A stretch of 64,000 nucleotides of DNA from Nitrospirota bacterium (GCA_963840455.1 CAWIYV010000007.1:160001-224000), one strand, 5' to 3'; positions 16,726 through 43,878 are shown, counted from the stretch's first letter. Made by a program: numbers and translations. The notes: generated from the sequence alone by a model not told the origin.

Positions 16726-17496
16726 ATGACCATGCGAGAGATGAAGCGCGGTCTGCAGCAATGTCTGTCCGTAGCGGTGCTGCTAGTGTTGGCAACAGTG
16801 AGTACGGCACGGTCACAGGAAGTGCTGCCGGAACAGGCACCGCCGCCGGCGCAGACGCCACAGACAGGCGCAGCGCCGCAGGAGCTGCTCAATACGGCCG
16901 GGAAGGTACGCCTTTCGCTGCACGGGGTGCTGGGCTTCGGGTTCGATAAGGTCGATGTCGGCACAACGATCTCGGGTGATACGGTCTCGATCAGCGGAGG
17001 CGGAGGACTTGGGGGAGGTGCGGGAATCGCGTTTGGTCTCTCGCGAAGCCTGGATCTTGACCTTGACCTCGGCTTTCAGGGGGGCGGCATGACTCCCCCG
17101 GTCGACAACGCGGACGGGTCGTTCACGCGCGGTTATTTCCTCGCGACGCTCAAGTACAAGAAACCCACCTCGGGCACCGGTCAGTTCAAGTTCGGGGCGG
17201 GGCTCGGCGCATATTTCGGCGGCAAGCTGAAGTTCAATCGGACGGACATGAATTTTAACGAGGAGGTCGACTACGACCCGGCCGTCGGTCTGCACTTCAC
17301 CGGAGAGTTCGAGCGCTTCATCAGTCCGAACGTTTCTTTCAATATCGGGGCCAAGATCTATTTTGTAGAGTACAAGGCGAAGTCCTACACGTTCAATTCT
17401 GTCGATGTGCCCGTTTCGGCGCTCAAGGACGATGTCCGGAATCTCAACGGCAGCGGTATGGACCTCCTGATCGGCATCAACATGTACTTTAATTAA
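16726..17496 (+). CDS. Outer-membrane beta-barrel protein (OmpW/OmpA-like 8-strand type)
   Basis: Signal peptide, Pro/Gln/Ala linker, alternating amphipathic strands (LDLDLDLGF, FKFGAGLGAY, VSFNIGAKIY), C-terminal IGINMYFN. Start may be 16741. Confidence 0.7.
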   Translation: MTMREMKRGLQQCLSVAVLLVLATVSTARSQEVLPEQAPPPAQTPQTGAAPQELLNTAGKVRLSLHGVLGFGFDKVDVGTTISGDTVSISGGGGLGGGAGIAFGLSRSLDLDLDLGFQGGGMTPPVDNADGSFTRGYFLATLKYKKPTSGTGQFKFGAGLGAYFGGKLKFNRTDMNFNEEVDYDPAVGLHFTGEFERFISPNVSFNIGAKIYFVEYKAKSYTFNSVDVPVSALKDDVRNLNGSGMDLLIGINMYFN

Positions 17497-17578
17497 GGGA
17501 CCCCTTCTCGGAGGGGTCCGGTCGCACTTTGTATGGCAGTATCAACCATTTGCACTCTTTCGTGAAGGAGCCTGATAC

Positions 17579-19117: not shown

Positions 19118-19133
19118 GTAAGGAGAGGCATTC

Positions 19134-28582: not shown

Positions 28583-30163
28583 ATGGGCCCAGGCCAGGCT
28601 AATGCAAGTTCGGCGACAGGAACAAAAAATCGGGTACCCGATGCGGCGCCGCAGTCAGGGATCTGTTCGGTCTGTCTTGACGGATGCCCGGGACCGTGCG
28701 AGGTAGGCAAGTCGTCCTACCGCGGCAGGGAGGTCATCTATCCGCTGCCCTTTGGCAAGGTGACTGCCGGGGCGACGAAGCAGTATCCCGTGGACTATGC
28801 TCATTTGAACATTCAAGGTACGTGCGTCGGCGCGTTCGGCGTGGCCGCGGACCCGGACAGGGCGATCTTCCCGGCGGTGTCCACGAAGGCCGAGCTGGGC
28901 CATAAGCATAAGATCAAGCTTGATGTCCCGATCTTCACCGGAGCCCTCGGCTCGACGGACATTGCCAAGGACAACTGGGAAGGGCTTGCCATCGGCGCCG
29001 CCATCTCCGGTATCATGGTGGTGATCGGAGAGAACGTGGTGGGCATGGATCCTCAGGCGCAGTTCAAGAACGACAAGGTCGCTCACTCGCCCGAGCTCGA
29101 GCGGCGGGTGAAATGCTTCAAGGAATGGCACAACGGGGCTGGTGAGATCATCCTGCAGCAGAACGTCGAGGACACACGGCTTCACTCAGCTGAGTACGCC
29201 ATCGAGAAGCTCGGTGTGAACTGCATCGAGCTCAAATGGGGGCAGGGCGCCAAGAACATCGGCGGCGAAGTGAAGCTCAGGAGCATTGAGCGAGCCGAAG
29301 AACTGAAGAAGCGGGGCTACATCGTGCTGCCCGATCCCGAGGACAAGACGGTGAAGAAGGCCTTCGCCGAGGAGGAGTTCAAGGAGTTCGAGCGGCACTC
29401 GCGGCTCGGCATGGTCGAACATGAGGGGTTCGTGAAAGCGGTGAAGCATTACCGCAGCGCGGGCGCGAAGTTCGTCTCACTCAAGACCGGCGCCTACCGC
29501 GTATCCGATCTCGCCAGGGCGATCCGGTTCTGCTCCGACGCCGAGATCGACCTGCTGACCATCGACGGCGCGGGTGGGGGAACGGGCATGAGCCCCTGGC
29601 GCATGATGAACGAGTGGGGGATCCCGACCATCTACCTCCAGTCGCTGGCCTGTAAGTTTGCATCTCAACTCAAGGCGAAGGGCAGATATGTCCCTGACAT
29701 GGCCATCGCCGGCGGTTTCTCCCTCGAGGACCACATCTTCAAGGCCCTAGCGCTCGGCGCGCCGCATTTCAAGGCGGTCTGCATGGGCAGGGCGCTCATG
29801 ATCCCCGCCTTCGTGGGGAAGAACATCAAGAAGTGGGTGGACGAGGACAAGCTGCCCGTGGACATCAAGAAGTACGGCGACGTGCCCGAGCGCATCTTCA
29901 TCACTACGGAAACACTGAAGGCCAAGTACGGCAAGGACTTCAGCCGTATCCCCTGGGGCGCTGTGGCCATGTACACCTTCGCCGACCGGTTGAAGCTCGG
30001 TCTGCAGCAGCTGATGGCGGGCGCACGGAAGTTCGGCCTCAAGCACATCGACCGGAGCGATATCGTGTCCCTGACACGAGAGGCCGCGGACGTGACCGGT
30101 ATTCCTTATGTCATGGACTCTGACATGAAGGAAGCTGAACGCATCCTGTGCAACGGCGTCTAA
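28583..30163 (+). CDS. FMN-binding glutamate synthase family protein (stand-alone), paralogue 2
   Basis: CSVCLDGCPGPC; ELKWGQGAK, DGAGGGTGMSP, IAGGF, KALALGA..MGRA; colinear with paralogue 1. Confidence 0.85.
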   Translation: MGPGQANASSATGTKNRVPDAAPQSGICSVCLDGCPGPCEVGKSSYRGREVIYPLPFGKVTAGATKQYPVDYAHLNIQGTCVGAFGVAADPDRAIFPAVSTKAELGHKHKIKLDVPIFTGALGSTDIAKDNWEGLAIGAAISGIMVVIGENVVGMDPQAQFKNDKVAHSPELERRVKCFKEWHNGAGEIILQQNVEDTRLHSAEYAIEKLGVNCIELKWGQGAKNIGGEVKLRSIERAEELKKRGYIVLPDPEDKTVKKAFAEEEFKEFERHSRLGMVEHEGFVKAVKHYRSAGAKFVSLKTGAYRVSDLARAIRFCSDAEIDLLTIDGAGGGTGMSPWRMMNEWGIPTIYLQSLACKFASQLKAKGRYVPDMAIAGGFSLEDHIFKALALGAPHFKAVCMGRALMIPAFVGKNIKKWVDEDKLPVDIKKYGDVPERIFITTETLKAKYGKDFSRIPWGAVAMYTFADRLKLGLQQLMAGARKFGLKHIDRSDIVSLTREAADVTGIPYVMDSDMKEAERILCNGV

Positions 30164-30276: not shown

Positions 30277-31269
30277 ATGAACAAGACGCTGCATGCCATT
30301 CTTTCCATTCTCGATAGATGTTCGACCGTCACCGGTTCTCGGGAGATCTCGCGGCAGTTGAAGCTGCGCGGCGTGGAGATCACCGAACGGACGGTCCGGT
30401 ATTATCTGAAAATGCTTGATAAGAAAGGCTATACGGAAGTATTTGGCAAGGAAGGCCGAAAGATCACCGCCGCCGGAAGGGAAGAGCTCAAACACTCCCT
30501 CGTTTCCGACAAGATCGGATTTGTGATCAGCAAAATTGAAACGCTCTCGTACATGACCACCCTGGACATGGCGACCATGGAAGGCGATGTGATCCTGAAC
30601 ATCTCGTATTTTCCGCGAAAGCACCTTCGTCAGGCGCTGCGATTGCTCAAACCCGCCTTCTCGTCACCTTATGTGATGAGCGATCGGGTGATCCTTGCAC
30701 CCGAGGGGGAGAAGATCGGGGATGTAATCGTTCCCAAAGGAATGGTGGGGTTGGGCACGATCTGCAGTGTGACGATCAATGGTATATTTCTTAAGGCGGG
30801 CATTCCCGTCGCCTCGCGGTTTGGCGGGGTCGTGGAGACCGCGAATGGCAAACCCCTGCGGTTCGTTTCCCTGATCAGCTATGACGGATCATCCCTCGAT
30901 CCTCTCGAAGTGTTCATCAAGAGCAAGATGACCGCAGTCTCCAAGGCCGTGGCTGACGGCCGCGGCAGGATACTCGCCAGTTATCGGGAGATCCCCGTGG
31001 TATGTCTGGACAAGGCAAAAAAGCTCGCCCGCACCCTGGAAGATCGGGGCATACGCGGCATTCTGCTTATCGGCAGTCCGAACAAACCCCTTCTGGAAGT
31101 ACCGGTCGGGATCGACCGGGCCGGCATCGTGATCGTCGGCGGACTCAATCCGGTGGCCGTCCTGGAGGAGCACGGGATCACAACGGAGAGCAAGGCCATG
31201 TCGACCCTCTTCGAATACACTCAACTCGTGCCCTTTCAGGATACGCTGAGCATTCCTCTCTCATCCTGA
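30277..31269 (+). CDS. nrpR: NrpR-family nitrogen repressor (wHTH + single NRD/DUF128), copy 1
   Basis: GSREISRQL..ITERTVRYYL..LDKKG wHTH; TICSVTINGIFLKAGIP, YDGSSLDPLEVF, GGLNPVAVLEEHGI. Confidence 0.85.
   Translation: MNKTLHAILSILDRCSTVTGSREISRQLKLRGVEITERTVRYYLKMLDKKGYTEVFGKEGRKITAAGREELKHSLVSDKIGFVISKIETLSYMTTLDMATMEGDVILNISYFPRKHLRQALRLLKPAFSSPYVMSDRVILAPEGEKIGDVIVPKGMVGLGTICSVTINGIFLKAGIPVASRFGGVVETANGKPLRFVSLISYDGSSLDPLEVFIKSKMTAVSKAVADGRGRILASYREIPVVCLDKAKKLARTLEDRGIRGILLIGSPNKPLLEVPVGIDRAGIVIVGGLNPVAVLEEHGITTESKAMSTLFEYTQLVPFQDTLSIPLSS
30333..31217 (+). repeat. 885-bp direct repeat (nrpR core), copy 1
   Basis: Matches 39696..40580 with only two substitutions seen (30727 a/g, 30780 t/c). 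Confidence 0.92.
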
Positions 31270-31361: not shown

Positions 31362-31420
31362 TTGACAGTGCAACTCAACCAGGTGTATTGTAAAAAAAAT
31401 GAATCGGCAATCGATTGCCG
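31362..31420 (+). promoter_or_regulatory. sigma70 promoter plus putative NrpR operator (site 2)
   Basis: TTGACA-18-TATTGT, then perfect palindrome CGGCAATCGATTGCCG at 31405..31420. Confidence 0.7.
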
Positions 31421-31652
31421 TCTAAAAGCACCTCGCGAAGCCACTTTTGCCGCTGTTCAGCGATCGATCGTCGGTCGTTTGTACGTGGGCGATGGGATCG
31501 TTCCGCGTGCAGGAGAGACCTCAATGCGGGAAAGGCTCCCGTTCCCTGGCACCAATTGCCAGATCGATACCGTGAACACAATTCCAGGTATGCAGTCATT
31601 TGAACTTCTACATTAAATTTTTAGGGACAAGACAGTGAGAGAGAGGACGAGC

Positions 31653-32189
31653 ATGAAGGATGCGAATCGGTCGGGGAATGCGCCGCGGATCGTGGTGGTT
31701 TATTGTCGCAACGCGATATCGTCTGCCGCTGAAATGCTCGAAGGGCCCTACAACGCAAAAGGATTCAGTGCTTATTTTGCCGCCCTGCCTTGTTCCAGTA
31801 AAATAGAACCCTCATATCCTCTTAAAATGCTGGCCGATGGGGCTGACGGAGTGCTCGTGGTGGCATGTCTGGAGGGCCGTTGCAGGAATTTGGTGGGTAA
31901 TGTCCGGGCGGAAAAGAGGATCAACTATGTGCGGTCGCTCTTGGACAAGGCTGGCATGGGCGCTGAACGCCTGACTCTGGAGCGGGGAGAGAATCTTATG
32001 GAAAAAGATCTTCTGGAGCTGGCTCAGCGCCGGCTTGGACCAGTGCAAGTACTGGGACCCAACCCCATGGGCAGTGTCACAAGGTTACAGGAAGATGAAG
32101 GAAAGAAAGTGAAACCACGCCCTGTACGAGCTGTTCCACGCGTAAAGGCCGGGCGCAGACAGAGCGCGCTCAGAAAAAAGGGGAAGTAA
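31653..32189 (+). CDS. mvhD: MvhD/FlpD-like [2Fe-2S] protein (hydrogenase delta subunit family)
   Basis: IVVVYC, LPCSSKI, GADGVLVVACLEGRC..GN.RA..RI, GMGAERL, LGPNP. Alternative GTG start at 31635. Confidence 0.85.
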   Translation: MKDANRSGNAPRIVVVYCRNAISSAAEMLEGPYNAKGFSAYFAALPCSSKIEPSYPLKMLADGADGVLVVACLEGRCRNLVGNVRAEKRINYVRSLLDKAGMGAERLTLERGENLMEKDLLELAQRRLGPVQVLGPNPMGSVTRLQEDEGKKVKPRPVRAVPRVKAGRRQSALRKKGK

Positions 32190-32246
32190 CAGTCCCTGTG
32201 TTCTATTGTGGATTGTAATAATACGTCCCATGAAGGGGGAGAGAAC

Positions 32247-32918
32247 ATGATTATTGCGGAATGGAAGCCCCTGCCGGAACTGGTGGATAAATTAAGAGGA
32301 CATACCAATGTTCTCGTAGCGGGATGCGCTACCTGTGTGGCAGAGTGCGCGGCGGGCGGGGAGCGTGAAGTGGAGACCCTTGCGCCGCTGCTTCAGATGG
32401 CGCTCAAGAAAGAAGGGCACACGATCACCGTGCGTACCAGGACGGTGGAGCGGCAGTGTGAATGGGAATTCGTGGAGGAGCTGGCCGAACTGGTCCCTCA
32501 CGTGGATGCGATCGTCAGCCTTGCCTGCGGCATCGGCATTCAGGCGGTGGCCGAGCGGTTTCCCGATCTGGCGGTATATCCCGGCGTGAACACGACGGCC
32601 CTGGCGATCCGGCAGGAGCCGGGAATGTGGATCGCGCGGTGCGCGGCCTGCGGCGACTGTGTTCTTGGCGAAACCTTTGGCCTGTGTCCGGTCGCCCGCT
32701 GCGCAAAAAGTCTTTCAAACGGACCGTGCGGCGGCACCAGAAAAGAAGGCAAATGCGAAATCGATGAGAACCTCGACTGCGTGTGGTTCCAGATCTACGA
32801 GCGGGCAAAATCCCGCGGGAAAGTGAAGCAACTCCTTAAAGTGCGGAAGCCCAAAAACTGGTCGAACTCAGGCCATGGAGGTCCCAAGCGGGTGGTACGG
32901 GAGGATCTGCGGCCATGA
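32247..32918 (+). CDS. metV: MetV (methylene-THF reductase Fe-S/Zn subunit)
   Basis: GCATCVAECAAGG, RQCE, LACGIG, CAACGDC..CPVARCAKSLSNGPCGG..C..CVW; overlaps metF start. Confidence 0.85.
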   Translation: MIIAEWKPLPELVDKLRGHTNVLVAGCATCVAECAAGGEREVETLAPLLQMALKKEGHTITVRTRTVERQCEWEFVEELAELVPHVDAIVSLACGIGIQAVAERFPDLAVYPGVNTTALAIRQEPGMWIARCAACGDCVLGETFGLCPVARCAKSLSNGPCGGTRKEGKCEIDENLDCVWFQIYERAKSRGKVKQLLKVRKPKNWSNSGHGGPKRVVREDLRP

Positions 32919-33853
32919 TGAAAGCAGGGACCAGACTCGAAAAAACGCTCCGCGCCGGACAGTTCGCCCTGACCGTCGAGGTGGGACCGCCGCGCGGCCC
33001 CAACCCCGAGGATATCCTTCGCAAAGCGCGGCTGCTCAAGGGCGTCGCCGACGGGTATAACGTCACCGACAATCAGACCGCGGTGGTGCGCATGTCGAGC
33101 ATTGCCGGCGCCCGGCTTCTTCTCGAGGCCGGATGCGAACCGATCATGCAGATGACGTGCCGTGACCGCAACCGCATCGCCCTGCAATCCGACCTGCTGG
33201 GTGCCTGGGCGCTCGGAATGCGCAACTGCCTCTGCATTTCAGGCGACCACCAGAAAGCGAGCGCATCAGGAAAGCTGAAAGGCGACCCCGGCGCCAAGAA
33301 CGTCTTTGACGTCGACTCGATGCAGCTGATCTCGATCATGAAGAACATGCGTGACGCAGGTGTTCTGGTGAGCGGCGACCTTCTTTCGCAGCCGACGCCT
33401 TTTTTTATCGGCGCAGCCTGGACGCCGTTTGCACCTCCTGAAGAGTTCCGTGTATTGCGGCTTGCCAAGAAGATCGAGGCGGGCGCCGACTTTATCCAGA
33501 CCCAGGCCGTCTTTGACATGAAGCGGTTCGCAAACGCTGTCGCAACGGCCGAGGAGATGGGGCTCACCGAAAAGACCGCGATTCTGGCCGGTATCATTGT
33601 TCCAAAATCCGCCAGAATGCTCGAATATATGAATGCCAACGTGCCGGGCGTGGAAGTACCGGACGCCCTCATCAAGCGGATGGCTGCCGCAAAGGACCAG
33701 CGCCAGGAAGGGTATCAGATCACTGTTGAACTGATCCAGGCCGCCCGGAAGATCCCGGGTGTGAAAGGCGTGCACCTCCAGGCCATTGAATCCGAAGAGG
33801 TTCTGCCCGAGATCATAAAATCCGCTGGACTCCTGCCCCGACCGCAGGTTTAA
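32915..33853 (+). CDS. metF: MetF methylenetetrahydrofolate reductase
   Basis: TVEVGPP (catalytic Glu), NVTDNQ, CRDRNRIALQSDLLGA, SGDH (catalytic Asp), KKIEAGADFIQTQ. Confidence 0.92.
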   Translation: MMKAGTRLEKTLRAGQFALTVEVGPPRGPNPEDILRKARLLKGVADGYNVTDNQTAVVRMSSIAGARLLLEAGCEPIMQMTCRDRNRIALQSDLLGAWALGMRNCLCISGDHQKASASGKLKGDPGAKNVFDVDSMQLISIMKNMRDAGVLVSGDLLSQPTPFFIGAAWTPFAPPEEFRVLRLAKKIEAGADFIQTQAVFDMKRFANAVATAEEMGLTEKTAILAGIIVPKSARMLEYMNANVPGVEVPDALIKRMAAAKDQRQEGYQITVELIQAARKIPGVKGVHLQAIESEEVLPEIIKSAGLLPRPQV

Positions 33854-33881
33854 ACTCGCTGTTCCCGGATGGTAAGAAGAC

Positions 33882-35351
33882 ATGTCGAAGAAATATCACA
33901 TCAGGATTGATCCGGCGCCCGCCCGCTATCCGGGCGTACCCAAGTATTCCGTGCTGGAAACCGAGGGATGTCTGGGCTGTTTGAAGTGCGTTAAGCGGAC
34001 CTCGTGCGTGTACTCCGCCTATGACGAGCGGTCGTTCGATCCCAAGGCGATCGTGGACAAGACCGACACCATGTGCGTTGGCTGCATGCAATGCGTCCAG
34101 GATTGCAAAAAGAACATTCTCAGCCGGGGAAAGAACCCCCGGTTCGAAAAAATGGGCAATGCGTACTGGACGCCCTCGGTCATCGCGGGCATCTGGAAAC
34201 AGGCCGAGAATGGCAAGATACCCGTATCCGGCGCCGGTTACCGCGGTCCGTTCAGCGGTGCCGGATTCGATCAGATGTGGACAGACATGTCGGAAATCGT
34301 CCGGCCCACCCGCGACGGCATCCACGGCCGCGAATATATCAGCACGCTCATTGAACTTGGCCGGAGGCCGTCCAGACTTGTTTTCGACGCCCGGGGCGGC
34401 ATGGTGACCGAGCCTCCTCCGTTCATCGAGTTGCCGGTTCCTCTTGTATTGGAAATTCCCGATTCCGCCCACGTGTCGGCCCAAACGATAGAGGCTATCG
34501 CCCGTGCCGGCCATCGCGCCGGGACGCTGCTGATCGTCGATGCCAAAACCGCAAAGAACATCCCACCACGTCTTAAAGACCGGTTGATGGTGATCTTTGA
34601 TCCGGCGGTCGACAAGGCCGCCGTTCTCAAGGACATTCCCGCGGTCCAGATGGCCTATTCGGCATCCGTAATGAAAGATGCCGCCAAGCTCAAGCGTACC
34701 CGGCCTGACCTGGTGATTTCGGTGCGCGTGCCACTCGATGAACATGCGGTGAAACGCGCTGCCAAACTTGCCGCCGACGGGGCGGAGGTGGTCCATCTCT
34801 ATGCAGATGGAAAGGGCAGGGGGCTGAAAAAGCGCAAGGCCGACTTTGTTACCGCCCTTATGAAGGAAGTGCACTTCAAGCTGGTGGATGAAGGCGTGCG
34901 CGAAGAGCTGACGCTTCTGGTTTCCGGCGGCATTGCAATGGCCGAGCATGTCGCCAAGGCAATGCTCTGCGGAGCCGATGGTGTGGGCGTTGACACCGCG
35001 CTGTTGGTCGCTCTGGAGTGCCGCGTCTGCACGATGTGCAAATCCGAGATCGTATGCCCGGTGGAACTGGAAAAGGCGCCGGTGGAATGGGCCGAGAAGC
35101 GGATCGTGAACCTTCTTGGTTCATGGCACTCCCAGCTTATCGAAATGATGGGCGCAATGGGAATCCGCGAGGCGCGCCGCCTGCGGGGAGAGCTCGGCCG
35201 GGCGATGTTTTTTGATGACCTGGAGCGGGAAAACTTCGGGCCGCTGTTCGGAGAGCGGGTAAAGGGAGATCAGGCCGCGCCGGTATTGCCGAACGAAATA
35301 CCCGTCCCCCATCACGGGAACGGTCGTCTTCAAGACGCCGGGCGGCATTGA
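33882..35351 (+). CDS. Degenerate glutamate-synthase FMN-domain (GltB2-like) protein with N-terminal ferredoxin
   Basis: CLGCLKC..C / CVGCMQCVQDC; GFDQMWTDMSEIVRPTRDG; VSGGI..HVAKAMLCGADGV; CRVCTMC...CP; lacks MSFG, TGEGG and KxAQGAKPG. Confidence 0.7.
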   Translation: MSKKYHIRIDPAPARYPGVPKYSVLETEGCLGCLKCVKRTSCVYSAYDERSFDPKAIVDKTDTMCVGCMQCVQDCKKNILSRGKNPRFEKMGNAYWTPSVIAGIWKQAENGKIPVSGAGYRGPFSGAGFDQMWTDMSEIVRPTRDGIHGREYISTLIELGRRPSRLVFDARGGMVTEPPPFIELPVPLVLEIPDSAHVSAQTIEAIARAGHRAGTLLIVDAKTAKNIPPRLKDRLMVIFDPAVDKAAVLKDIPAVQMAYSASVMKDAAKLKRTRPDLVISVRVPLDEHAVKRAAKLAADGAEVVHLYADGKGRGLKKRKADFVTALMKEVHFKLVDEGVREELTLLVSGGIAMAEHVAKAMLCGADGVGVDTALLVALECRVCTMCKSEIVCPVELEKAPVEWAEKRIVNLLGSWHSQLIEMMGAMGIREARRLRGELGRAMFFDDLERENFGPLFGERVKGDQAAPVLPNEIPVPHHGNGRLQDAGRH

Positions 35352-35358
35352 TGTCACC

Positions 35359-36849
35359 GTGAAACTCGACCCTTCCCGCTACCGCAACCAGTTCGGCAAA
35401 TATAAAGTGGTGCGGACCTCCGCCTGCATCGCATGCGGCAAGTGCGCCGAGGTGTGCGCCTATGGCGTGCACGTCAAGGCGGGCAGCCGCATGCTCGCCC
35501 CCAAATCCCATCTGTGCCGGGGTCGTGAACACTGCCGCGGCAACAAACGGTTTTGCGCCGACAGCTGCCCGGTGAACGCCTTGCGGGTCGGCAAAGACCC
35601 GCTCTTCGAGACGATCGGCGATCCCCGGTGGACCGCTGACCTGTTGCTGGCGACCTGGCATCAGGCCGAGACCGGCCGTCCGCCGGAAGGCGGCCTTGAG
35701 TACCGGGTGGGAGAGTCGGGCGGCGGGTTCGATCGCATGGACTTTAAATTCCCCGAACAGCTTCCCGATCCCTCACTGAAGCCGGAGGACGTGGACCTTT
35801 CCATTCCGCTGAATCGAAGAAAGGACGGACGGCCTGAGGTCATGATCGGCTTTCCCGTATATGGCGGGGGAATGAGTTTCGGATCCGTAAGCCTCACCAC
35901 CATCCTTTCGCGGGCGCGAGCCTATGTCGCGATGAATTCTTTCACCTGCACCGGCGAAGGCGGTTATCCTGACGATCTTAAGCAATACGACGACCATGTG
36001 ATCACTCAGATCGCCACGGGGCTCTTTGGAGTGCGGGAAGAGACCATCCAGCGGGTGCGCATGGTTGAATTCAAATATGCCCAGGGCGCCAAACCGGGCC
36101 TCGGCGGTCATCTGCTGGGAGACAAGGTTACTCCCGCCGTGGCAAAGATGCGGGAAGCAGTGGTCGGCTCCGCTCTTTTTTCTCCCTTTCCGTTCCACTC
36201 GGTCTACTCGGTGGAGGATCACAAGAAACACGTCGACTGGATCAAGGCGATCAACCCCAAGGCGCTGGTGTCGGTCAAGGTTTCCACACCTTCGGACGTG
36301 GACATGGTGGCCGTGGGCAGCTTTTATGCCGGCGCCAATGTCATCCATCTTGACGGAAGCTATGGAGGCACAGGAGCCGCTCCCGATATAGCCAAAAAGA
36401 ATATCGCCATGCCGATCGAGTACGCCATACCCAAGGTGCACCGTTTCTTGGTCGCTGAGGGGATCCGCCCCGAAATGACGCTCATCGTGTCGGGCGGTCT
36501 GCGCACGGCCTGGGATGTCGCCAAGGCGATCGCCCTGGGCGCCGATGGCGTGGTGGTGGGTACAGCGGAGATGGTGGCGCTTGAATGCATCCGGTGCGCA
36601 AACTGCGAGAGCGGACGGGGGTGCCCGCGCGGCATAGCCACTACCGATCCCAAGCTGAGCGCAATGTACGATGAAACCTGGGGTTCTCAGCGGATCATGA
36701 ACCTTTTCCATTCCTGGGCCCTCCAACTCCAGGATATTCTCCATCGTTTCGGTATGAAAAGTGTTCGTGAGCTGGTGGGTCGGTCTGACCTGTTGCTTCA
36801 CCGCGACTACGAAAAACGCGCGGAATACCGCAGAGTGGAGTCAGGATAA
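35359..36849 (+). CDS. Glutamate synthase FMN-binding subunit (archaeal-type GltB2) with ferredoxin domain
   Basis: CIACGKCAEVC; GGMSFGS, TGEGG, QIATGLFG, KYAQGAKPGLGGHL..DKV, DGSYGGTGAAP, SGGLRT, CIRCANC..CP. Confidence 0.88.
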   Translation: MKLDPSRYRNQFGKYKVVRTSACIACGKCAEVCAYGVHVKAGSRMLAPKSHLCRGREHCRGNKRFCADSCPVNALRVGKDPLFETIGDPRWTADLLLATWHQAETGRPPEGGLEYRVGESGGGFDRMDFKFPEQLPDPSLKPEDVDLSIPLNRRKDGRPEVMIGFPVYGGGMSFGSVSLTTILSRARAYVAMNSFTCTGEGGYPDDLKQYDDHVITQIATGLFGVREETIQRVRMVEFKYAQGAKPGLGGHLLGDKVTPAVAKMREAVVGSALFSPFPFHSVYSVEDHKKHVDWIKAINPKALVSVKVSTPSDVDMVAVGSFYAGANVIHLDGSYGGTGAAPDIAKKNIAMPIEYAIPKVHRFLVAEGIRPEMTLIVSGGLRTAWDVAKAIALGADGVVVGTAEMVALECIRCANCESGRGCPRGIATTDPKLSAMYDETWGSQRIMNLFHSWALQLQDILHRFGMKSVRELVGRSDLLLHRDYEKRAEYRRVESG

Positions 36850-39503
36850 TGAATTCCAAATCAACCAGTAAACATAATCCATGGAACGGTACGGGCCGTG
36901 ATCCGCGGTTCCCCGAAATAATCACCGCCTCCCGCGCCGACCTCGTGTCCGGCGCTCCGAACGCCCGGGAAAAATCAGCCGAGGAGGGCGGTTGCGGCGT
37001 GGTAGGTTTCGCGGCCACCGTACCGGTACGGGGACGCCATATCTTCGAGCCTTCTATGCAGATGCATAATCGGGGCAACGGCAAAGGCGGCGGGATCGCC
37101 GCCGCGTCTCTGCAACCCGAGGACCTCGGGGTGGACGAGGCAACGCTGAAGAACGATTACATCCTTCAGATCGCGCTGATCGATCCGGCGGCAGAGCGGG
37201 AAGTGGAGGAGTTCGGCATCGCTCCCTGGCTCGAGGTGCAGCACAAGACCCGCATTCATCCGGTTGCAGACCATCGGGACGTCGGGCTGGAAGTGAAGCC
37301 GCCGGACATCGTGCGATACTTTGTGCGTGTCAAGGACAACGCGCTCACTCGATTTGCCAAGGAGCATGGGTTGGGCAAATCGGACCGCCGTCTGGTTGAG
37401 GATGAGTTCATTTTCCGCAACAGCTTTCAGATCAACCGCCGGTTCTACGCTTCCCTGGGAGACAAACGCGCCTTTGTGCTCTCCCACGCGCGCGATCTGC
37501 TCATATTCAAGATCGTGGGGTATGCCGAGCAGGTCGTGAAGTATTACGGCCTCACCGATATGCGCGCCAAGATCTGGATCGCCCATCAGCGCTATCCTAC
37601 TAAAGGCAGGGTGTGGCATCCTGCGGGCGCGCATCCGTTCATCGGAATGAATGAGGCGCTGGTCCATAACGGCGACTTTGCAAACTACTTCGGCGTGACC
37701 GAATACCTGCGGCAGCGCAACCTCGTGCCACAATTTCTGACCGACACGGAGGTCTCGGTCCTCCTGTTCGATCTGCTGACCCGCGTTTATGGGTATCCGC
37801 TGGAGTATGTCATCGAGGCGATGGCTCCCACCACCGAGATCGACTTCGACGCACTCCCCACAGGCAAGAAGAAGATCTACCGGGCCATTCAGGCCCAGCA
37901 TATGCACGGATCGCCCGACGGCCCCTGGTTCTTCATCATCGCGCGCAGCGATCCGGACCAGTGCCAATACCAGCTTCTGGGGATCACTGACACCTCCATG
38001 CTCAGACCGCAGGTGTTCGCCATCCAGGAGGGGGATGTTTCCATCGGCCTGATCGGTTCCGAGAAACAGGCCATCGACGCCACGCTGCAGTCCCTTGCCG
38101 AGGAAGATGCGCGGTTCCGCCATGTCGCCGACCGATACTGGAACGCCCGGGGTGGCAGCTACACCGACGGCGGCGCCTTCGTCTTCACGGTAAATACGTC
38201 TGGCAACAATACGACACTTGCCTGCGCTGACAAGTTCGGCAAGCCCATCAGCGCGCCTGCCGGGCAGTGGAGGATCAATCCTGACCGGAAGGTGGCGATC
38301 GCGGACAAATGGAGCGCCCGGATCACCAACGGCCTCTCCGCTGCCGCCGCTCAAGAGTTGTTCGGCGACCTTACGGCTGAGTTCCTTTCCTGGGACCTTG
38401 ATCAGATTCGTGTGGCGATCGATAAGATATACACGGCTGCTGCGGTTGATGACCGGAGCTTCGAGACCGCATTGCAGGTGCTTACGTTATTGCAGGACCG
38501 TCGCTACGATTGTGGTCCCAATAAAAGAAGCGCGATTCTCCACCTTCTTCAAAACGGGGTAAGCAGGCTTCTTGACTCGGTTCCGTCGATAACAAAACGT
38601 GACCCGGGCCGATATCAACGGGTGGACTTCTCCACACGCGATCAACTCGGTGCGCCGCAACGAGAAGAGGGGACGCTGGTGGTCTATAGCCGGGATTTCC
38701 CGCCCGAAGGAGACGATTGCGATGCTCTGCTGATGGCCCAGGCCTTTCGGCAGGGCTGGAAACGGTTCATCGTATACGGGCTAAAGGGACAGCGGTTCAC
38801 CGGGTGCAGCTTCGGGCCTGCGACCGACGGCGTCCGCATCGACGTGTATGGCAGTTCCGGCGACTATCTCGCATCCGGGATCGATGGCATGGAGGTCCAG
38901 GTCCACGGCAACGGCCAGGACCAGCTCGGTCAGATACTCAAGCGCGGTACGCTTGTGGTTCACGGCGATGTGGGACAGGCATTCATGTATGGCGCCAAGG
39001 GCGGTGAGATATTCATCATGGGTAATGCAGCAGGGCGTCCCCTCATTAATGCGGCAGGCCGTCCGCGCGTGATCATCAATGGTACCTGCCTGGATTTTCT
39101 CGCGGAATCCTTCATGGCCGGTGATCCGCACCAGGGCGGTGGGTTCGTCGTATTGAACGGCGTTGAATTCGACGACAGGGGCGTGGTCCGCGACCAGAAA
39201 GCGCCCTATCCCGGATCAAACCTTTTTTCGCTCGCTTCCGGCGGCGCGATCTTCGTACGCGATCCCCACCATACGATCGGCAGGGAAAAGCTGAACGGCG
39301 CTGAGTTCGCCGAGATGTCCGTGGAGGATTGGCAGCTCATTCAACCGTATCTTCAGGCAAATGAGCGCCACTTCGGCATTTCGATCGAACGGGATTTGCT
39401 GATGGTTGACGGCAAAACCAGTTCACCTCAATCGGTGTACCGGAAAGTGCGTCCGGTGAAAACGGCGGCGCTTGCCAAAAAGGTGGAAGAATCTGATGAA
39501 TAG
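36849..39503 (+). CDS. Glutamate synthase class II amidotransferase + GXGXG domain fusion (GltB1+GltB3)
   Basis: EEGG-CGVVG (Ntn Cys after a 48-aa propeptide), HNRGNGKGGGI, AHQRYPT, AHPF, VHNGD, TDTE; C-terminal GSSGDY..GNGQDQ..GDVGQAFMYG beta-helix. Confidence 0.85.
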   Translation: MNSKSTSKHNPWNGTGRDPRFPEIITASRADLVSGAPNAREKSAEEGGCGVVGFAATVPVRGRHIFEPSMQMHNRGNGKGGGIAAASLQPEDLGVDEATLKNDYILQIALIDPAAEREVEEFGIAPWLEVQHKTRIHPVADHRDVGLEVKPPDIVRYFVRVKDNALTRFAKEHGLGKSDRRLVEDEFIFRNSFQINRRFYASLGDKRAFVLSHARDLLIFKIVGYAEQVVKYYGLTDMRAKIWIAHQRYPTKGRVWHPAGAHPFIGMNEALVHNGDFANYFGVTEYLRQRNLVPQFLTDTEVSVLLFDLLTRVYGYPLEYVIEAMAPTTEIDFDALPTGKKKIYRAIQAQHMHGSPDGPWFFIIARSDPDQCQYQLLGITDTSMLRPQVFAIQEGDVSIGLIGSEKQAIDATLQSLAEEDARFRHVADRYWNARGGSYTDGGAFVFTVNTSGNNTTLACADKFGKPISAPAGQWRINPDRKVAIADKWSARITNGLSAAAAQELFGDLTAEFLSWDLDQIRVAIDKIYTAAAVDDRSFETALQVLTLLQDRRYDCGPNKRSAILHLLQNGVSRLLDSVPSITKRDPGRYQRVDFSTRDQLGAPQREEGTLVVYSRDFPPEGDDCDALLMAQAFRQGWKRFIVYGLKGQRFTGCSFGPATDGVRIDVYGSSGDYLASGIDGMEVQVHGNGQDQLGQILKRGTLVVHGDVGQAFMYGAKGGEIFIMGNAAGRPLINAAGRPRVIINGTCLDFLAESFMAGDPHQGGGFVVLNGVEFDDRGVVRDQKAPYPGSNLFSLASGGAIFVRDPHHTIGREKLNGAEFAEMSVEDWQLIQPYLQANERHFGISIERDLLMVDGKTSSPQSVYRKVRPVKTAALAKKVEESDE

Positions 39504-39639
39504 GCGCGCCCCTCAGACCACAGCGCAATGTCCTGCGTTGTCATCTCTTCCTTAGATACAACATTCATTTTCTGTTTCGCCACATGCAATGACATAAGTC
39601 CATCGGACTTCCGAAAGGAACTTTTTGAGGAACAGTATC

Positions 39640-40656
39640 ATGAGCAAGACGCTTCATGCGATCCTCTCTATTCTTGACAAGCATCCGACCGTGGTCGGTT
39701 CTCGGGAGATCTCGCGGCAGTTGAAGCTGCGCGGCGTGGAGATCACCGAACGGACGGTCCGGTATTATCTGAAAATGCTTGATAAGAAAGGCTATACGGA
39801 AGTATTTGGCAAGGAAGGCCGAAAGATCACCGCCGCCGGAAGGGAAGAGCTCAAACACTCCCTCGTTTCCGACAAGATCGGATTTGTGATCAGCAAAATT
39901 GAAACGCTCTCGTACATGACCACCCTGGACATGGCGACCATGGAAGGCGATGTGATCCTGAACATCTCGTATTTTCCGCGAAAGCACCTTCGTCAGGCGC
40001 TGCGATTGCTCAAACCCGCCTTCTCGTCACCTTATGTGATGAGCGATCGGGTGATCCTTGCACCCGAGGGGGAGAAGATCGGGGATGTAGTCGTTCCCAA
40101 AGGAATGGTGGGGTTGGGCACGATCTGCAGTGTGACGATCAACGGTATATTTCTTAAGGCGGGCATTCCCGTCGCCTCGCGGTTTGGCGGGGTCGTGGAG
40201 ACCGCGAATGGCAAACCCCTGCGGTTCGTTTCCCTGATCAGCTATGACGGATCATCCCTCGATCCTCTCGAAGTGTTCATCAAGAGCAAGATGACCGCAG
40301 TCTCCAAGGCCGTGGCTGACGGCCGCGGCAGGATACTCGCCAGTTATCGGGAGATCCCCGTGGTATGTCTGGACAAGGCAAAAAAGCTCGCCCGCACCCT
40401 GGAAGATCGGGGCATACGCGGCATTCTGCTTATCGGCAGTCCGAACAAACCCCTTCTGGAAGTACCGGTCGGGATCGACCGGGCCGGCATCGTGATCGTC
40501 GGCGGACTCAATCCGGTGGCCGTCCTGGAGGAGCACGGGATCACAACGGAGAGCAAGGCCATGTCGACCCTCTTCGAATATTCCCGCTTGATGCCGTTCA
40601 AGGGCATCATGCGCTCTGCGCTCTCTCTTGCGAGGACTCTTTCCTGCGCTGCATAG
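39640..40656 (+). CDS. nrpR: NrpR-family nitrogen repressor, copy 2
   Basis: Near-identical to 30277..31269 except at both termini. Confidence 0.85.
   Translation: MSKTLHAILSILDKHPTVVGSREISRQLKLRGVEITERTVRYYLKMLDKKGYTEVFGKEGRKITAAGREELKHSLVSDKIGFVISKIETLSYMTTLDMATMEGDVILNISYFPRKHLRQALRLLKPAFSSPYVMSDRVILAPEGEKIGDVVVPKGMVGLGTICSVTINGIFLKAGIPVASRFGGVVETANGKPLRFVSLISYDGSSLDPLEVFIKSKMTAVSKAVADGRGRILASYREIPVVCLDKAKKLARTLEDRGIRGILLIGSPNKPLLEVPVGIDRAGIVIVGGLNPVAVLEEHGITTESKAMSTLFEYSRLMPFKGIMRSALSLARTLSCAA
39696..40580 (+). repeat. 885-bp direct repeat (nrpR core), copy 2
   Basis: Offset 9363 bp from copy 1. Confidence 0.92.
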
Positions 40657-40718: not shown

Positions 40719-40782
40719 TTGACAGTTGAGCTTAACCCGGTGTATTGTACTCATCCGAAATCGCACGGCAATGCATTGCCGT
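40719..40782 (+). promoter_or_regulatory. sigma70 promoter plus putative NrpR operator (site 3)
   Basis: TTGACA-18-TATTGT, then perfect 18-bp palindrome ACGGCAATGCATTGCCGT at 40765..40782. Confidence 0.7.
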
Positions 40783-40784: not shown

Positions 40785-40812
40785 AAAAGCCCCTTTAAAA
40801 GGGGCTTTTTTT
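40785..40812 (+). terminator. Terminator-like hairpin in the leader of the third glt operon
   Basis: AAAAGCCCCT-TTAAA-AGGGGCTTTTTT. Confidence 0.65.
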
Positions 40813-41051
40813 GCAGTTGTTTGGGGACATAAACCACTGGCCCTTTGTTCGCCTGGAGAGGGTTGTTCTCGCCGGTAGTCCGGGCCCCCCCGATGAACAG
40901 AACTTGGCCATAGCTAACACACCAAATCCGATACATCCAGTCTATAATATGATGGTAGACTGGCTGGGTATCGCATGCTGATATTTGCATTTGGCTACAC
41001 ACCCGGGTGTTTTCTCCAAACATTACCGGCTGTAAGAAGAGGAGCAACAGT

Positions 41052-42161
41052 ATGTGCCGTTTGAGCGCGATCACGTCGGGCGATTATTTCTCCCCCATGG
41101 AGAACATCCTGGCTCTGGAGACCATGAAGGAAGGACACGACGGGTCCGGTCTCGGCCTGATGCTGAAGGACTTGGGCGGCCCCTTTGCGGAGTTCAAGGG
41201 GTATCCGGTCCTGTCCGTCGTCTGCTCCAACAAGGGACTCCTGTTCCTGGACGAATACATGAAGGCGCAGGGGTTCAAGGAAAAGTTCACCTGGGCGCCT
41301 ACTATCAAGAACGTACGGGGCATCGAACGACGGGAGCACTATCTCGCAAAGGTGTACGATTATCCTGAGAGCTACCGGGACAAACCGATGCGTGAGCAAG
41401 AGGACCTGCTGATGAATACGCGGCTGTCCCTCCGGAAGGTGGGTGAGCCCGATGAGTCCATCTTCGCCTTTTCGTTCTATCCCGATGTTCTCACCCTGAA
41501 GGAAGTAGGAGATCCGCTCCATGTCGGCGAGTTCTTCGGACTGGACACATCAGACATTTCGGCAAAGATCGTTTTAGCCCAGGGCCGGCAGAACACGAAC
41601 TATGCCATCTATCTCTACTCGTGCCATCCTTTCTTCATCCAGGGTTACGGCACCATGACGAATGGCGAGAATACCGCCTTCGTGCCCATCCGGGAGTTCC
41701 TGATGGGGCGCGGCAATCCCGGCTACATGGGGTACAACTCGGATTCCGAGGTCTTCACGCACATCCTGCACTATACGAACAGGACCCTCGGCTATCCGAT
41801 GCACTACTATAAGGATGTCATCACGCCGCTGAAAGAAAGCGAGATCGAGAAAAGGTCCGACGCAGCGGCGCTCCGTCTGCTCAAGAAGTCGCTCCGGCCG
41901 CTCTGTATCGACGGGCCCAACTGCGTCATCGGGTTCACGCCCGATGGATCGTGCTTCATGGTCCACGACGCGAAGAAGCTGCGGCCCGGCGCGGTAGGCG
42001 GGAAACCCGGCAAGTACGCGCTCATGTCCGAGGTGTGCGGTGTGGACCGGGCGGTCCCGAACCGGGACAAGGCCACGGACATCTTCCCGATGAAGTACGA
42101 CATGGTCATCATCGCGCCCGGCGCGCGGGAGGTCAAGGTATGGAATCAGCTGCACGGTTAG
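41052..42161 (+). CDS. Glutamate synthase class II glutamine amidotransferase subunit
   Basis: M-C-RL start (Cys2 nucleophile), GHDGSGLG, QGRQNT, CHPF, TNGE, NSDSE, DGP. Confidence 0.85.
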   Translation: MCRLSAITSGDYFSPMENILALETMKEGHDGSGLGLMLKDLGGPFAEFKGYPVLSVVCSNKGLLFLDEYMKAQGFKEKFTWAPTIKNVRGIERREHYLAKVYDYPESYRDKPMREQEDLLMNTRLSLRKVGEPDESIFAFSFYPDVLTLKEVGDPLHVGEFFGLDTSDISAKIVLAQGRQNTNYAIYLYSCHPFFIQGYGTMTNGENTAFVPIREFLMGRGNPGYMGYNSDSEVFTHILHYTNRTLGYPMHYYKDVITPLKESEIEKRSDAAALRLLKKSLRPLCIDGPNCVIGFTPDGSCFMVHDAKKLRPGAVGGKPGKYALMSEVCGVDRAVPNRDKATDIFPMKYDMVIIAPGAREVKVWNQLHG

Positions 42162-43795
42162 ATCAGAACCATCAGCTCACGCTGAAGGAATTCCCCTATA
42201 TCATCCAGTGGCGCGAGGACCGGTGCACCCGCTGCGGCCGCTGCACGGCCGTCTGCCCCATGAAGTCAATCGAACCGGCCGTGCAGGTTCAGCGCCTCGT
42301 GCGCTCCGAGGGCGACAACCCATCGCCCAAGATATCGCGTACCGTCTCCCACGTGGTGAAGCAGGTCACGGACATCGAACGCTACTGCATCGGCTGCGGG
42401 TCCTGCACGCTCGTCTGCCCGACCGATGCCATCTTCCCGGAGTACAACTTCCAGCACAAGTTCTACCACTTCAAGAACAAGGGCGGCATCCCGTACATGC
42501 GGGGCGGCCGGCGGAACGACCCTTCGGTCTCGACGCTCGACAAGCTCAAGTTCACCCGGATCTCCATGCTCACCGACCCGGCGCTCGACGCGGGGCGGCA
42601 CGAGTTCCGCATCCGCACGCTCCTGGGCAGGAACCTCCCGGCTGAGCAGCTTCCCCTCAGGGTGTCGGGCGAAACGCTCAGCATCGGCGATGGTACCTTC
42701 ATCCCGCCGGTCCGCGAGATATATCCCATCCGCATCGGCAGCATGTCCATCGGCGCGCTCTCGCCCCACATGTGGGAGGGGCTCGCCATGGGGATCACGT
42801 ACCTGAACGAGGTCGAGGGCCTGCCGGTGGTGATGTGCTCCGGCGAGGGCGGCATGCCGCCCTCCCTCTTGAAATCGCGCTACATGAAGTACTTCATCCT
42901 CCAGATCGCGTCGGGCTATTTCGGATGGGATGAGATCATTCGGGCGCTGCCAGACATGATCGAGGATCCCTGCGCCATAGAGATCAAGTACGGGCAGGGC
43001 GCGAAGCCCGGCGACGGCGGGCTGCTCCAGGCGTACAAGGTGCTGGGGCTCATTGCCAAGATCCGGGGCGTACCGCAGTTCGTTGACCTGTCTTCACCGC
43101 CCACTCACCAGACGCAATACTCCATCGAGGAATCGGTCGCTAAAATGATACAGTCCATGTCAATGGCTTGGGGTTTCCGTGTGCCTGTGTATCCCAAGAT
43201 TTCGGGCAGCAAAACAGCGCGGGCAGTGCTTAATAATCTCGCGCGGAACCCTTATGCGGCAGCGCTCTGCATTGATGGCGAGGACGGCGGCACGGGCGCG
43301 GCCTACAATGTATCCATGGACAAGATGGGGCATCCCATCGCGTCGAACATCCGCGATTGCTACCTGGACCTGGTGAAGCAGGGCAAGCAGAACGAGCTGC
43401 CGCTCATCGCTGCGGGCGGCGTGGGCAAGGGCGGGAACCTCGCGGCGAATGCCGCTGCGCTCATCATGCTGGGAGCATCGGCGGTGGACATCGGAAAGTA
43501 CATCATGCAGACCGCGGCAGGCTGCTTCGGCGATGAGCATAACCGCTGCAACGTCTGCAACCTCGGCAGGTGCCCGCGCGGCATAACGACGCAGGACCCC
43601 AAGCTCTACCGCAGGCTCGATCCCGACAAGGTCGCCGAGCGCGTGGTGGAGGTCTTCAAGGCGGCCGACGTGGAGCTCAAGAAGATCTTCGCGCCGCTGG
43701 GCAGGAGCACCGAGCTTCCCATCGGCATGTCCGACGCGCTCGGTGTGGGGGACAAGGACATCGCGGATAGGCTGTCGATCAGCTACGTTTGTTAA
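42140..43795 (+). CDS. Glutamate synthase FMN/Fe-S subunit
   Basis: CTRCGRCTAVCP and CIGCGSCTLVCP; GSMSIGALS, SGEGG, QIASGYFG, IKYGQGAKPGDGG, DGEDGGTGAA, CNVCNLGRCPRGITTQDP. Confidence 0.88.
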   Translation: MESAARLDQNHQLTLKEFPYIIQWREDRCTRCGRCTAVCPMKSIEPAVQVQRLVRSEGDNPSPKISRTVSHVVKQVTDIERYCIGCGSCTLVCPTDAIFPEYNFQHKFYHFKNKGGIPYMRGGRRNDPSVSTLDKLKFTRISMLTDPALDAGRHEFRIRTLLGRNLPAEQLPLRVSGETLSIGDGTFIPPVREIYPIRIGSMSIGALSPHMWEGLAMGITYLNEVEGLPVVMCSGEGGMPPSLLKSRYMKYFILQIASGYFGWDEIIRALPDMIEDPCAIEIKYGQGAKPGDGGLLQAYKVLGLIAKIRGVPQFVDLSSPPTHQTQYSIEESVAKMIQSMSMAWGFRVPVYPKISGSKTARAVLNNLARNPYAAALCIDGEDGGTGAAYNVSMDKMGHPIASNIRDCYLDLVKQGKQNELPLIAAGGVGKGGNLAANAAALIMLGASAVDIGKYIMQTAAGCFGDEHNRCNVCNLGRCPRGITTQDPKLYRRLDPDKVAERVVEVFKAADVELKKIFAPLGRSTELPIGMSDALGVGDKDIADRLSISYVC

Positions 43796-43800
43796 CGGAC

Positions 43801-43870
43801 GGAGCCAGGAGTCAGGAATCGAGAGAAAATCGATTTTCTTCTGGCTTCTGGCTCCTGACTTCCTATTCTG
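43801..43870. repeat. Intergenic inverted array of 7-bp units (GGAGTCA/TGACTCC)
   Basis: GGAGCCAGGAGTCAGGA ... TTCTGGCTTCTGGCTCCTGACTTCC; relatives at 53105..53247 and 6060..6135. Confidence 0.65.
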
Positions 43871-43878
43871 AGGTATAC

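Follow-up and report, generated by a model that had tools for sequence, protein, structure and literature searches.

The gene cluster

The DNA analyzed here is a stretch of 64,000 nt from a Nitrospirota bacterium (GCA_963840455.1; genome of 4.03 Mb), called the window below, and positions are those of the whole window. The subject is a cluster of six genes (31653–39503, plus strand) in which the electron-transfer adaptor MvhD and the methylene-tetrahydrofolate (methylene-THF) reductase subunits MetV and MetF stand beside the parts of a split glutamate synthase (GOGAT). Open reading frames (ORFs) and Pfam matches give the order mvhD, metV, metF, gltB2′, gltB2, and a gene for a fusion of a glutamine amidotransferase (GATase) with a GXGXG domain. 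In front of them is a single promoter-like site of the sigma-70 type (31362–31391, plus strand; TTGACA-18-TATTGT, 10/12), one of the two best in 30.2–41.1 kb, and 13 nt past its −10 box lies the perfect 16-nt palindrome CGGCAATCGATTGCCG (31405–31420). The operon is flanked on both sides by nrpR genes. ORF calls, Pfam, and the promoter scan confirm the initial annotation of six packed, co-directional genes behind one promoter with a palindrome.

The first gene, mvhD (31653–32189; PF02662, 9e-19), codes for a [2Fe-2S] electron-transfer adaptor; its ATG at 31653 is preceded by GAGAGAGGA, and the ORF is open from a GTG at 31635. It is followed by metV (32247–32918; PF12225, 3.7e-32), the Fe-S/Zn subunit of a MetFV-type methylene-THF reductase, with M14 (32247) of an ORF opening at GTG 32208 as the likely start, and by metF (32915–33853; PF02219, 1e-37), the flavin subunit of that reductase. 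The three glt genes are gltB2′ (33882–35351; Fer4-type matches and PF01645, 2.5e-15), gltB2 (35359–36849; PF01645, 6.9e-91, with Fer4) for a catalytic synthase subunit with flavin mononucleotide (FMN) and Fe-S centers, and the gltB1/3 fusion (36849–39503; PF01493, 2.5e-12; GATase_6, 4.9e-5), all on the plus strand. Genes metV and metF overlap by 4 nt, and gltB2 and the GATase gene by 1 nt. The other genes are spaced by 57 nt from mvhD to metV (18 nt with the GTG start of MetV), 28 nt from metF to gltB2′, and 7 nt from gltB2′ to gltB2. Pfam finds neither a Pyr_redox_2/GltD nor a CCG/Hdr domain in the six proteins, in agreement with the earlier statement that the operon has no GltD subunit and no HdrABC.

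Conservation and distribution

A profile search with GltB2′ of contigs from one genome per species gave at least 595 loci. The best 80 of these were annotated by BLASTP with the window proteins, loci with short flanks being excluded from each denominator. With at least 2.6 kb upstream (57 loci), MvhD is present in 57/57, MetV in 45/57, MetF in 42/57, and both MetV and MetF in 40/57. Where both flanks are covered (37 loci), MetF is found up- or downstream in 32, and the GATase-GXGXG gene lies downstream of GltB2 in 51 of 52 loci. MetVF stands mostly upstream; in L032, L037, L044, and L052, it is downstream of the GATase gene. The synteny test that had been proposed is thus strongly positive. 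Judged by gene content, the constant unit is MvhD, GltB2′, GltB2, and GATase-GXGXG, with MetVF as a usual but exchangeable companion.

Hdr-like genes occur in only three of the 80 loci, and the other 77 have none within the fetched flanks. The three contain HdrBC-like and/or large HdrA-like genes (L068, 4296–7091; L079, 7524–7937; L083, 16192–21394). These loci have no MetVF, or their MetF is divergent and has lost catalytic residues, which hints at exchangeable or alternative redox modules on one MvhD adaptor.

The phylum labels of the 80 loci are at least eight (Nitrospirota, Thermodesulfobacteriota, Planctomycetota, Lentisphaerota, Verrucomicrobiota, Chloroflexota, Actinomycetota, and Spirochaetota). 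In a sample of the bacterium's own phylum, the cluster is found in 7 of 301 genomes: its own, three of five congeners, two others in the family, and one from another family, with the cluster at 45% identity. So scattered a distribution points to horizontal transfer of the unit as a whole. Of the 49 carrier genomes, 42 encode acetyl-CoA synthase (PF03598), compared with 2 of 14 control genomes (40/45 carriers with a cluster MetV and/or MetF, and 2/4 with neither). The enzyme of the cluster thus occurs where the pool of methyl-tetrahydrofolate (methyl-THF) is a central metabolite.

The glutamate synthase core

GltB2 begins with a ferredoxin domain and aligns further on to residues 880–1169 of Azospirillum GltB (3e-54). 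It retains QGAKPG, GGTGA, and the equivalents of Cys1102, Cys1108, and Cys1113 (Azospirillum numbers, counted from the pairwise alignment), together with one extra, fourth Cys; the QGAKPG and GGTGA motifs are present in 71/71 homologs. The fusion protein is a class-II glutamine amidotransferase (N-terminal nucleophile, or Ntn, type), with EEGGC49GVVGF after a leader of 48 residues, HQRYPT, and HNGD. Both HQR[YF][PS]T and HNG[DE] are kept in 55/55 full-length homologs, and EGGCGV(V/T)GF, followed by eye, in 54/55 (in the one remaining sequence, the N-terminus is garbled). The GXGXG β-helix (PF01493 at residues 659–818), which matches FwdC and the C-terminal domain of GltB, follows after a central region whose fold is unknown. 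The NCBIfam matches of the Glt proteins are to the glutamate-synthase large subunit only. In GltB2, the GATase, and MetF alike, the domains and catalytic motifs are complete, and the homologs conserve them. The three hallmarks of a GOGAT are present (Ntn amidotransferase, FMN synthase domain with Fe-S cysteines, and GXGXG helix), and catalysis is predicted from them.

Among the families that flank the cluster in the 80 loci, the most frequent are GlnA (16), a KaiC-HTH-cupin (HTH, helix–turn–helix) regulator (12), Amt (11), PII (11), and sigma-54/GAF activators (11), followed by GlnD (6), GlmS (6), and NAD synthase (5). In several loci, the genes are co-directional in the order amt-glnK-glnA-mvhD-.... 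The cluster GltB2 is the sole strong PF01645 match in 27 of another 43 carrier genomes and in three of five others (30/49 with the bacterium's own genome included), and the canonical GltB central domain occurs in 9 of the 43, all these carriers being metagenome-assembled genomes (MAGs), in which absence of another GOGAT is not proven. Read from its sequences and surroundings, the cluster is a real GOGAT that would serve ammonium assimilation together with glutamine synthetase.

GltB2′ and its predicted contact with MvhD

In GltB2′, only the second half aligns with GltB, and the PF01645 match covers only the C-terminal third of the profile. GGTGA is absent from 54/54 GltB2′ sequences and QGAKPG from 53/54, and an RPTRDGIHG motif occurs in 53/54. 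Over 45 sequences, the mean column identity is 47%, with many invariant residues; these include eight Cys of an N-terminal 2×[4Fe-4S] ferredoxin domain and a CxxCxxCx5CP cluster motif, and residues 114–155 form a near-invariant stretch proper to this protein. The phosphate-binding SGG...GADG stretch is kept. A single-chain model (mean predicted local distance difference test, pLDDT, 79.9) has the fold of an FMN-type TIM barrel, from which FMN binding is not decidable, and its Foldseek matches are mandelate oxidase, flavocytochrome b2, and the GltB chain 7mfm_G. GltB2′ had been described as a degenerate Fd-GltB2 (Fd, ferredoxin). The catalytic motifs are indeed absent, but the protein is not decaying and is a strongly conserved paralog. 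We propose that GltB2′ is a conserved non-catalytic paralog of the GOGAT FMN subunit, with a role in docking and electron transfer.

GltB2′ and GltB2 form one fused ORF in 27 of the 80 loci and two ORFs in 53, as called by a simple ORF caller. For the natural fusion of L005, AlphaFold2 with an alignment of 17 rows gives a poor model, uninformative about a pseudo-dimer, with a mean pLDDT of 64.2 and a predicted template-modeling score (pTM) of 0.53, and residues 115–153 are not ordered. In the two closest relatives of the window (L004 and L005), GltB2′-GltB2 is one ORF of ∼990 aa; compared with them, the window has an extra base near 35327, which leads to a stop at 35349–35351, with a new start at GTG 35359. 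At 35331, a base is missing from one contig of an RNA library. The extra base is either a real lineage-specific split, a form common elsewhere, or an assembly error.

MvhD matches solved MvhD chains and has four Cys that are invariant in 45 homologs. The complex of GltB2′ with MvhD, predicted with three [4Fe-4S] and one [2Fe-2S] clusters, has an ipSAE of 0.67 (0.69, 0.67, and 0.66 in the separate runs), and the best of three controls has 0.00; 58 of 80 solved complexes and 2 of 110 mismatched pairs pass the mark applied to ipSAE. Contacts agree between runs to at least 69%, and the pLDDT of the partner is at least 74. The predicted interface lies between the ferredoxin domain of GltB2′ (residues 23–28, 52–59, and 79–90) and the Cys-bearing loops of MvhD. 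The model supports docking of MvhD on the GltB2′ ferredoxin domain.

MetF, MetV, and a second set linked to Hdr

Residues Glu22, Asp111, and Gln197 of the window MetF align with those of the Thermus methylene-THF reductase (MTHFR), so that the catalytic Glu and Asp are retained, as initially stated, and the Gln as well. Among the MetFs of the clusters, Glu22 is kept in 56/58, Asp111 in 55/58, and Gln197 in 56/58; the exceptions are three long-branch sequences and a truncated one. The best NCBIfam match of the window MetF is the MTHFR half of PRK08645.

On another contig, the same genome contains a complete Moorella-type set, hdrCB-hdrA-mvhD-metV-metF, adjoining acetyl-CoA synthase. The order mvhD-metV-metF is common to both sets, and the window proteins are identical to the Hdr-linked copies at 57% (MetF) and 44% (MetV). 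Because a separate and complete Hdr-linked set exists, the window MvhD-MetVF is a dedicated second module, under nitrogen control. A pairing of the window MetFV-MvhD with an Hdr encoded elsewhere is disfavored, since the Hdr cluster has its own mvhD-metVF.

The Hdr-linked mvhD (G000:C10:305318–305686; ∼11319–11687 of L003, minus strand) contains one in-frame TGA, and the encoded MvhD may be a selenocysteine-containing protein. The hdrA-like gene beside it codes for 1087 aa.

MetF copies outside the cluster are found in every carrier genome checked. In a quick IQ-TREE tree with midpoint root (69 rows; the paralog loci L085, L089, and L096, which gave no BLAST hit with the ORF filter used, are left out), the cluster MetFs fall into at least three groups interleaved with non-cluster paralogs. 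This interleaving and the two positions of MetVF in the cluster suggest repeated recruitment.

Candidate NrpR operators

The palindrome upstream of mvhD is a candidate operator for NrpR. Directly upstream of the operon lies nrpR1 (30277–31269, plus strand), for an NrpR-family repressor (PF01995, 7.2e-86; winged-helix PF08461, 1.6e-14), and a second paralog, nrpR2 (39625–40656, plus strand; PF01995, 2.3e-86), lies between two GOGAT-type operons. A sibling control region (40719–40781, plus strand), with the promoter TTGACA-18-TATTGT (40719–40748) and the operator CGGCAATGCATTGCCG, precedes the neighboring split operon of the NAD(P)H type. The 16-mer CGGCAATCGATTGCCG is unique in the genome of 4.03 Mb, which has three copies of the core GGCAAT-N2-ATTGCC. 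Two of these copies are 13–17 nt past the −10 boxes of near-identical promoter modules before the two GOGAT operons, both of which sit just downstream of an nrpR gene; no promoter of this kind accompanies the third (C9:378105).

L005, the closest relative, retains the half-sites upstream of mvhD and has another spacer. Upstream of mvhD in L016, where nrpR is directly upstream, there are three tandem CGGCAA-N2-4-TTGCCG palindromes; there are two in L028 and two imperfect ones in L014. NrpR genes occur in 8 of the 80 loci, and elsewhere sigma-54/GAF activators are common. The NrpR operator of methanogens is GGAA-N6-TTCC, whereas the half-sites here are CGGCAA/TTGCCG with a spacer of 2–4 nt and do not match that type. 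The NrpR control put forward in the initial annotation is thus supported by comparative operator evidence, with binding of NrpR itself presumed. NrpR probably represses at the palindrome, which would overlap the transcription start, and 2-oxoglutarate would release it.

An Rfam scan of 24–48 kb gives a single match at chance level (E 0.43), and no riboswitch is found in the leaders of ∼215 nt. Right after the second operator, in the ∼230-nt leader of the neighboring GOGAT operon (40791–40815), there is a terminator-like hairpin, CCCTTTAAAAGGGG, with a T-run; it could be an attenuator or the terminator of nrpR2, and Rfam has no match at this place.

Neighboring genes in the window

All five PF01645 matches of the genome are within the window. 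The operon at 41.0–46.2 kb (41052–46203) had been taken for a conventional NADH-type GOGAT, and its presence for a sign that the six-gene operon does something different. The operon is of the split type and not a conventional GltBD: it codes for a GATase whose sequence begins MC..., an Fd-GltB2 that contains two ferredoxin motifs, and a fusion of GXGXG, GltD, and ferredoxin (804 aa). The argument from its presence does not hold either, since the cluster is the only strong PF01645 match in 30/49 carriers. A second Fd-GltB2 resembling that of the neighboring operon (∼190 bits) occurs in five other carrier genomes.

Upstream of nrpR1 are two tandem genes (26841–28433 and 28583–30163) for paralogs of ∼530 aa with only a weak PF01645 match, which belong to an uncharacterized group named “FMN-binding glutamate synthase family protein” (atlas score 0.99). 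Their homologs are found near the cluster in L005, L032, L038, L056, L059, L062, L075, and L081. The gene at 25380–26660 codes for a KaiC-like ATPase fused to HTH_3 and a cupin; it is of the family that flanks the cluster in 12/80 loci and is a candidate for a further regulator of nitrogen assimilation. Farther away (14747–20588), a gene for a β-barrel outer-membrane protein (16726–17496) breaks up a group of three Proton_antipo_M genes (nuoL/M/N-like).

Proposed electron input to the glutamate synthase

The best explanation for the six genes is a nitrogen-regulated GOGAT with MetFV-MvhD as electron-input module and, most likely, methyl-THF as reductant; we hold it tentatively, with a confidence that stays a little short of even. 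Its parts differ in strength. That MvhD and GltB2′ belong to a GOGAT complex is quite probable. Electronic coupling of MetFV to that complex, with a presumed contact through MetV, is slightly favored over its absence. Methyl-THF as the physiological reductant, which fixes the direction of electrons, is plausible without being the likelier outcome.

In the proposed mechanism, the GATase-GXGXG fusion would release ammonia from glutamine and channel it to 2-oxoglutarate, giving 2-iminoglutarate, which Fd-GltB2 would reduce at its FMN. GltB2′ would pair with GltB2 and offer its ferredoxin domain as docking site for MvhD. The [2Fe-2S] cluster of MvhD and the clusters of MetV would wire the GOGAT flavin to the flavin of the dedicated MetF, which would take a hydride from methyl-THF. 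Electrons would then flow from methyl-THF to MetF, MetV, MvhD, the ferredoxin domain and cluster of GltB2′, the clusters and FMN of GltB2, and finally 2-iminoglutarate. MetFV-MvhD would take the position held by GltD, ferredoxin, or FrhB in other GOGATs, and the setting would be a methyl-THF-dependent GOGAT in Wood–Ljungdahl organisms. Nitrogen control of metVF is understandable only when MetFV works for the GOGAT. The potentials are about −200 mV for CH2-THF/CH3-THF and about −70 mV for the GOGAT couple including glutamine hydrolysis; a GOGAT driven by methyl-THF would thus be exergonic by ∼25 kJ/mol. In the early suggestion that a folate-coupled GOGAT takes the place of Hdr, the replacement of Hdr is supported, with the Glt genes where HdrABC would be and docking of MvhD on GltB2′ predicted. 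Its first branch, glutamate synthesis driven by methyl-THF, is plausible and agrees with all the data; its second branch, the methylamine alternative, is not supported.

Several observations weigh against this reading. MetVF is not universal: MetV is absent upstream in 12/57 loci and MetF in 15/57, and neither is found in 3 of the 37 loci with both flanks. There are loci with MetV only (L031, L038, L064, L075, and L081), with MetF only (L070 and L083), and with neither (for example, L007, L012, L013, and L030), so that the GOGAT core with MvhD can work without a cis-encoded MetF. The cluster MetFs are ordinary MetFV-type enzymes that form no distinct clade, which would fit mere co-expression. 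Acetyl-CoA synthase is not found in 7 of the 49 carriers, all MAGs and possibly incomplete; in the bacterium's own phylum it is present in 7/7 carriers versus 154/301 genomes overall, a weak contrast with six of the seven carriers in one family. The GltB2′-MvhD prediction was run with our own alignments and with ligands, unlike the calibration, and it may owe part of its pass to likeness with solved interfaces between MvhD and the ferredoxin domain of HdrA. A search for longer proteins found no MvhD fusion, which counts for little. Contigs from RNA libraries (three, and one guessed to be RNA; soil metagenome) are 88–99% similar over all six genes and bridge only metV/metF (X19 records 25 and 26; X16 record 2) and gltB2/GATase (X18 record 21); at the metF-gltB2′ spacer, one contig reaches 22 nt inside metF and is not counted as bridging. 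They are weak evidence for expression, with DNA carry-over possible and a single transcript not provable from contigs. Finally, we know of no precedent for draining methyl-THF for a biosynthetic reduction.

On the other hand, the six genes could code for two enzymes in one operon, a ferredoxin-dependent split GOGAT (with GltB2′ and MvhD) and an independent, ferredoxin-dependent MetFV, with no electron exchange between them. The variability of MetVF beside constant MvhD and Glt genes fits this arrangement, as does the ordinary character of the MetFs; the 2×[4Fe-4S] ferredoxin domains of GltB2 and GltB2′ could accept electrons from soluble ferredoxin, and MetFV alone is reportedly ferredoxin-dependent in a Clostridium. 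There is, however, no evident reason for a second MTHFR under nitrogen control beside glnA, amt, and PII when other MetF copies are already present in all carriers checked. MetVF has, in addition, been recruited at no fewer than two positions and from several MetF lineages, and the order mvhD-metV-metF is that of the hdr cluster, whose parts are considered to form one complex (PMC5736913). We regard two separate enzymes as unlikely.

A flavin-based bifurcating or confurcating complex, in which MvhD feeds a flavin of GltB2′ in the role of HdrA, is less probable still, and distinctly so. The exergonic reduction of 2-iminoglutarate would be coupled through the second ferredoxin domain to an endergonic half-reaction, for example, reduction of ferredoxin from methyl-THF. 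Bifurcating Hdr complexes characteristically contain MvhD and MetFV (PMC6085437). The present complex would have a pair of ferredoxin domains and, beside the catalytic one, another barrel of the FMN type, which lacks the substrate motifs and keeps SGG...GADG and a cluster of its own. By the potentials usually given, donor and acceptors are roughly balanced. Against this stand the absence of GGTGA from all 54 GltB2′ sequences, with no sign of flavin binding, and a GOGAT flux that is small versus catabolism; we know of no bifurcating flavoprotein with the fold of GltB2′. Its full form, a new bifurcating enzyme in which the strongly exergonic glutamate synthesis pulls methyl-THF oxidation and the second electron goes uphill to ferredoxin by way of the spare ferredoxin domain, with GltB2′ as an HdrA-like hub supplied by MvhD, has slightly less probability again.

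MetF could also be an NAD(P)H-oxidizing input flavoprotein, which would make the enzyme an NAD(P)H-GOGAT without GltD. MetF-only enzymes, with a half-reaction of the E. coli type, have a flavin reducible by NAD(P)H, and the operon has no other pyridine-nucleotide site. The window MetF is, however, of the MetV-associated type, by its PRK08645 match and its 57% identity with the Hdr-linked copy, and MetFs of that type are not known to use NAD(P)H unless further subunits are present. With its residues for folate chemistry kept and a GltD-type input already supplied by the next operon, we consider this use of MetF very improbable. An anaerobic methylamine route, in which the Glt-like proteins would be an N-methylglutamate synthase/dehydrogenase and MetFV would dispose of the C1 unit, is hardly credible: N-methylglutamate synthase has the same domain set and the operon does encode a folate enzyme, but the ten most recurrent flanking families (the families scanned) include nothing of the methylamine, corrinoid, or sarcosine-oxidase-like kind and are instead glnA, amt, PII, glnD, sigma-54 regulators, and the like, the cluster is the only GOGAT candidate in 30/49 carriers, and the GOGAT substrate motif of GltB2 (71/71) and the NCBIfam matches speak for a glutamate synthase.

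Relation to known systems

Like GltBD of Azospirillum brasilense (PDB 2VDC, 1EA0, and 6S6S), the cluster has an Ntn amidotransferase, an FMN domain with QGAKPG/GGTGA and cluster cysteines, and a GXGXG domain. Unlike GltBD, it splits the GOGAT domains over three genes, places a ferredoxin domain before the FMN domain, and has a fourth cluster Cys; no central domain was detected and GltD is absent, and GltB2′, MvhD, and MetVF are added. Separate GATase, Fd-GltB2, and GXGXG parts with a swappable input module are shared with the split GOGATs of the archaeal and Thermotoga type and with the second operon of the same genome. In those, however, the input is not MvhD with MetVF, as it would be here, and GltB2′ is specific to the present type of cluster. 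In MgsABC, compared by description only, GATase-like, GXGXG, and FMN domains are likewise separate proteins; the cluster differs in its ferredoxin domains, MvhD, GltB2′, and GOGAT substrate motif, and no methylamine neighbors were seen. The proposed F420-dependent GOGAT of Methanothermobacter (MTH193) has an FrhB-like input subunit, which is a precedent for swapped input modules (PMC3087415).

With the MetFV-HdrABC-MvhD complex of Moorella thermoacetica, as described in PMC5736913 and PMC6085437, the cluster shares MvhD, MetV, and MetF with its key residues. In contrast with that complex, GOGAT subunits replace HdrABC, and the context is nitrogen assimilation and not a Wood–Ljungdahl operon. 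In an earlier survey, MetFVD was seen to lie apart from hdrABC in many cases, and Hdr was assumed to be its partner (PMC6085437). A description of mvhD/metVF beside glutamate-synthase genes was not found in the main texts of the open literature searched. Within that literature, we rate both the input module of this GOGAT and its pseudo-subunit as new.

The cluster bears on two matters, the physiological electron donor of split GOGATs in strict anaerobes and the redox partners of many MetFV-MvhD sets. Its occurrence in at least 595 genomes, each of a different species and from many phyla, is often that of the sole GOGAT candidate, and it introduces a conserved pseudo-enzyme, GltB2′, as a predicted docking platform for MvhD, and a candidate bacterial NrpR operator. 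If methyl-THF is the donor, the cluster would define a fifth class of GOGAT by its reductant, a hypothesis open to assay; NAD(P)H or low-potential ferredoxin would be spared, and in organisms with an oxidative pathway the difficult oxidation of methyl-THF would be relieved. If it is not the donor, many uncultured anaerobes still have their main GOGAT in this cluster, and the annotation of their MetFV-MvhD genes would change. The cluster may link nitrogen assimilation to one-carbon metabolism across many anaerobic bacteria.

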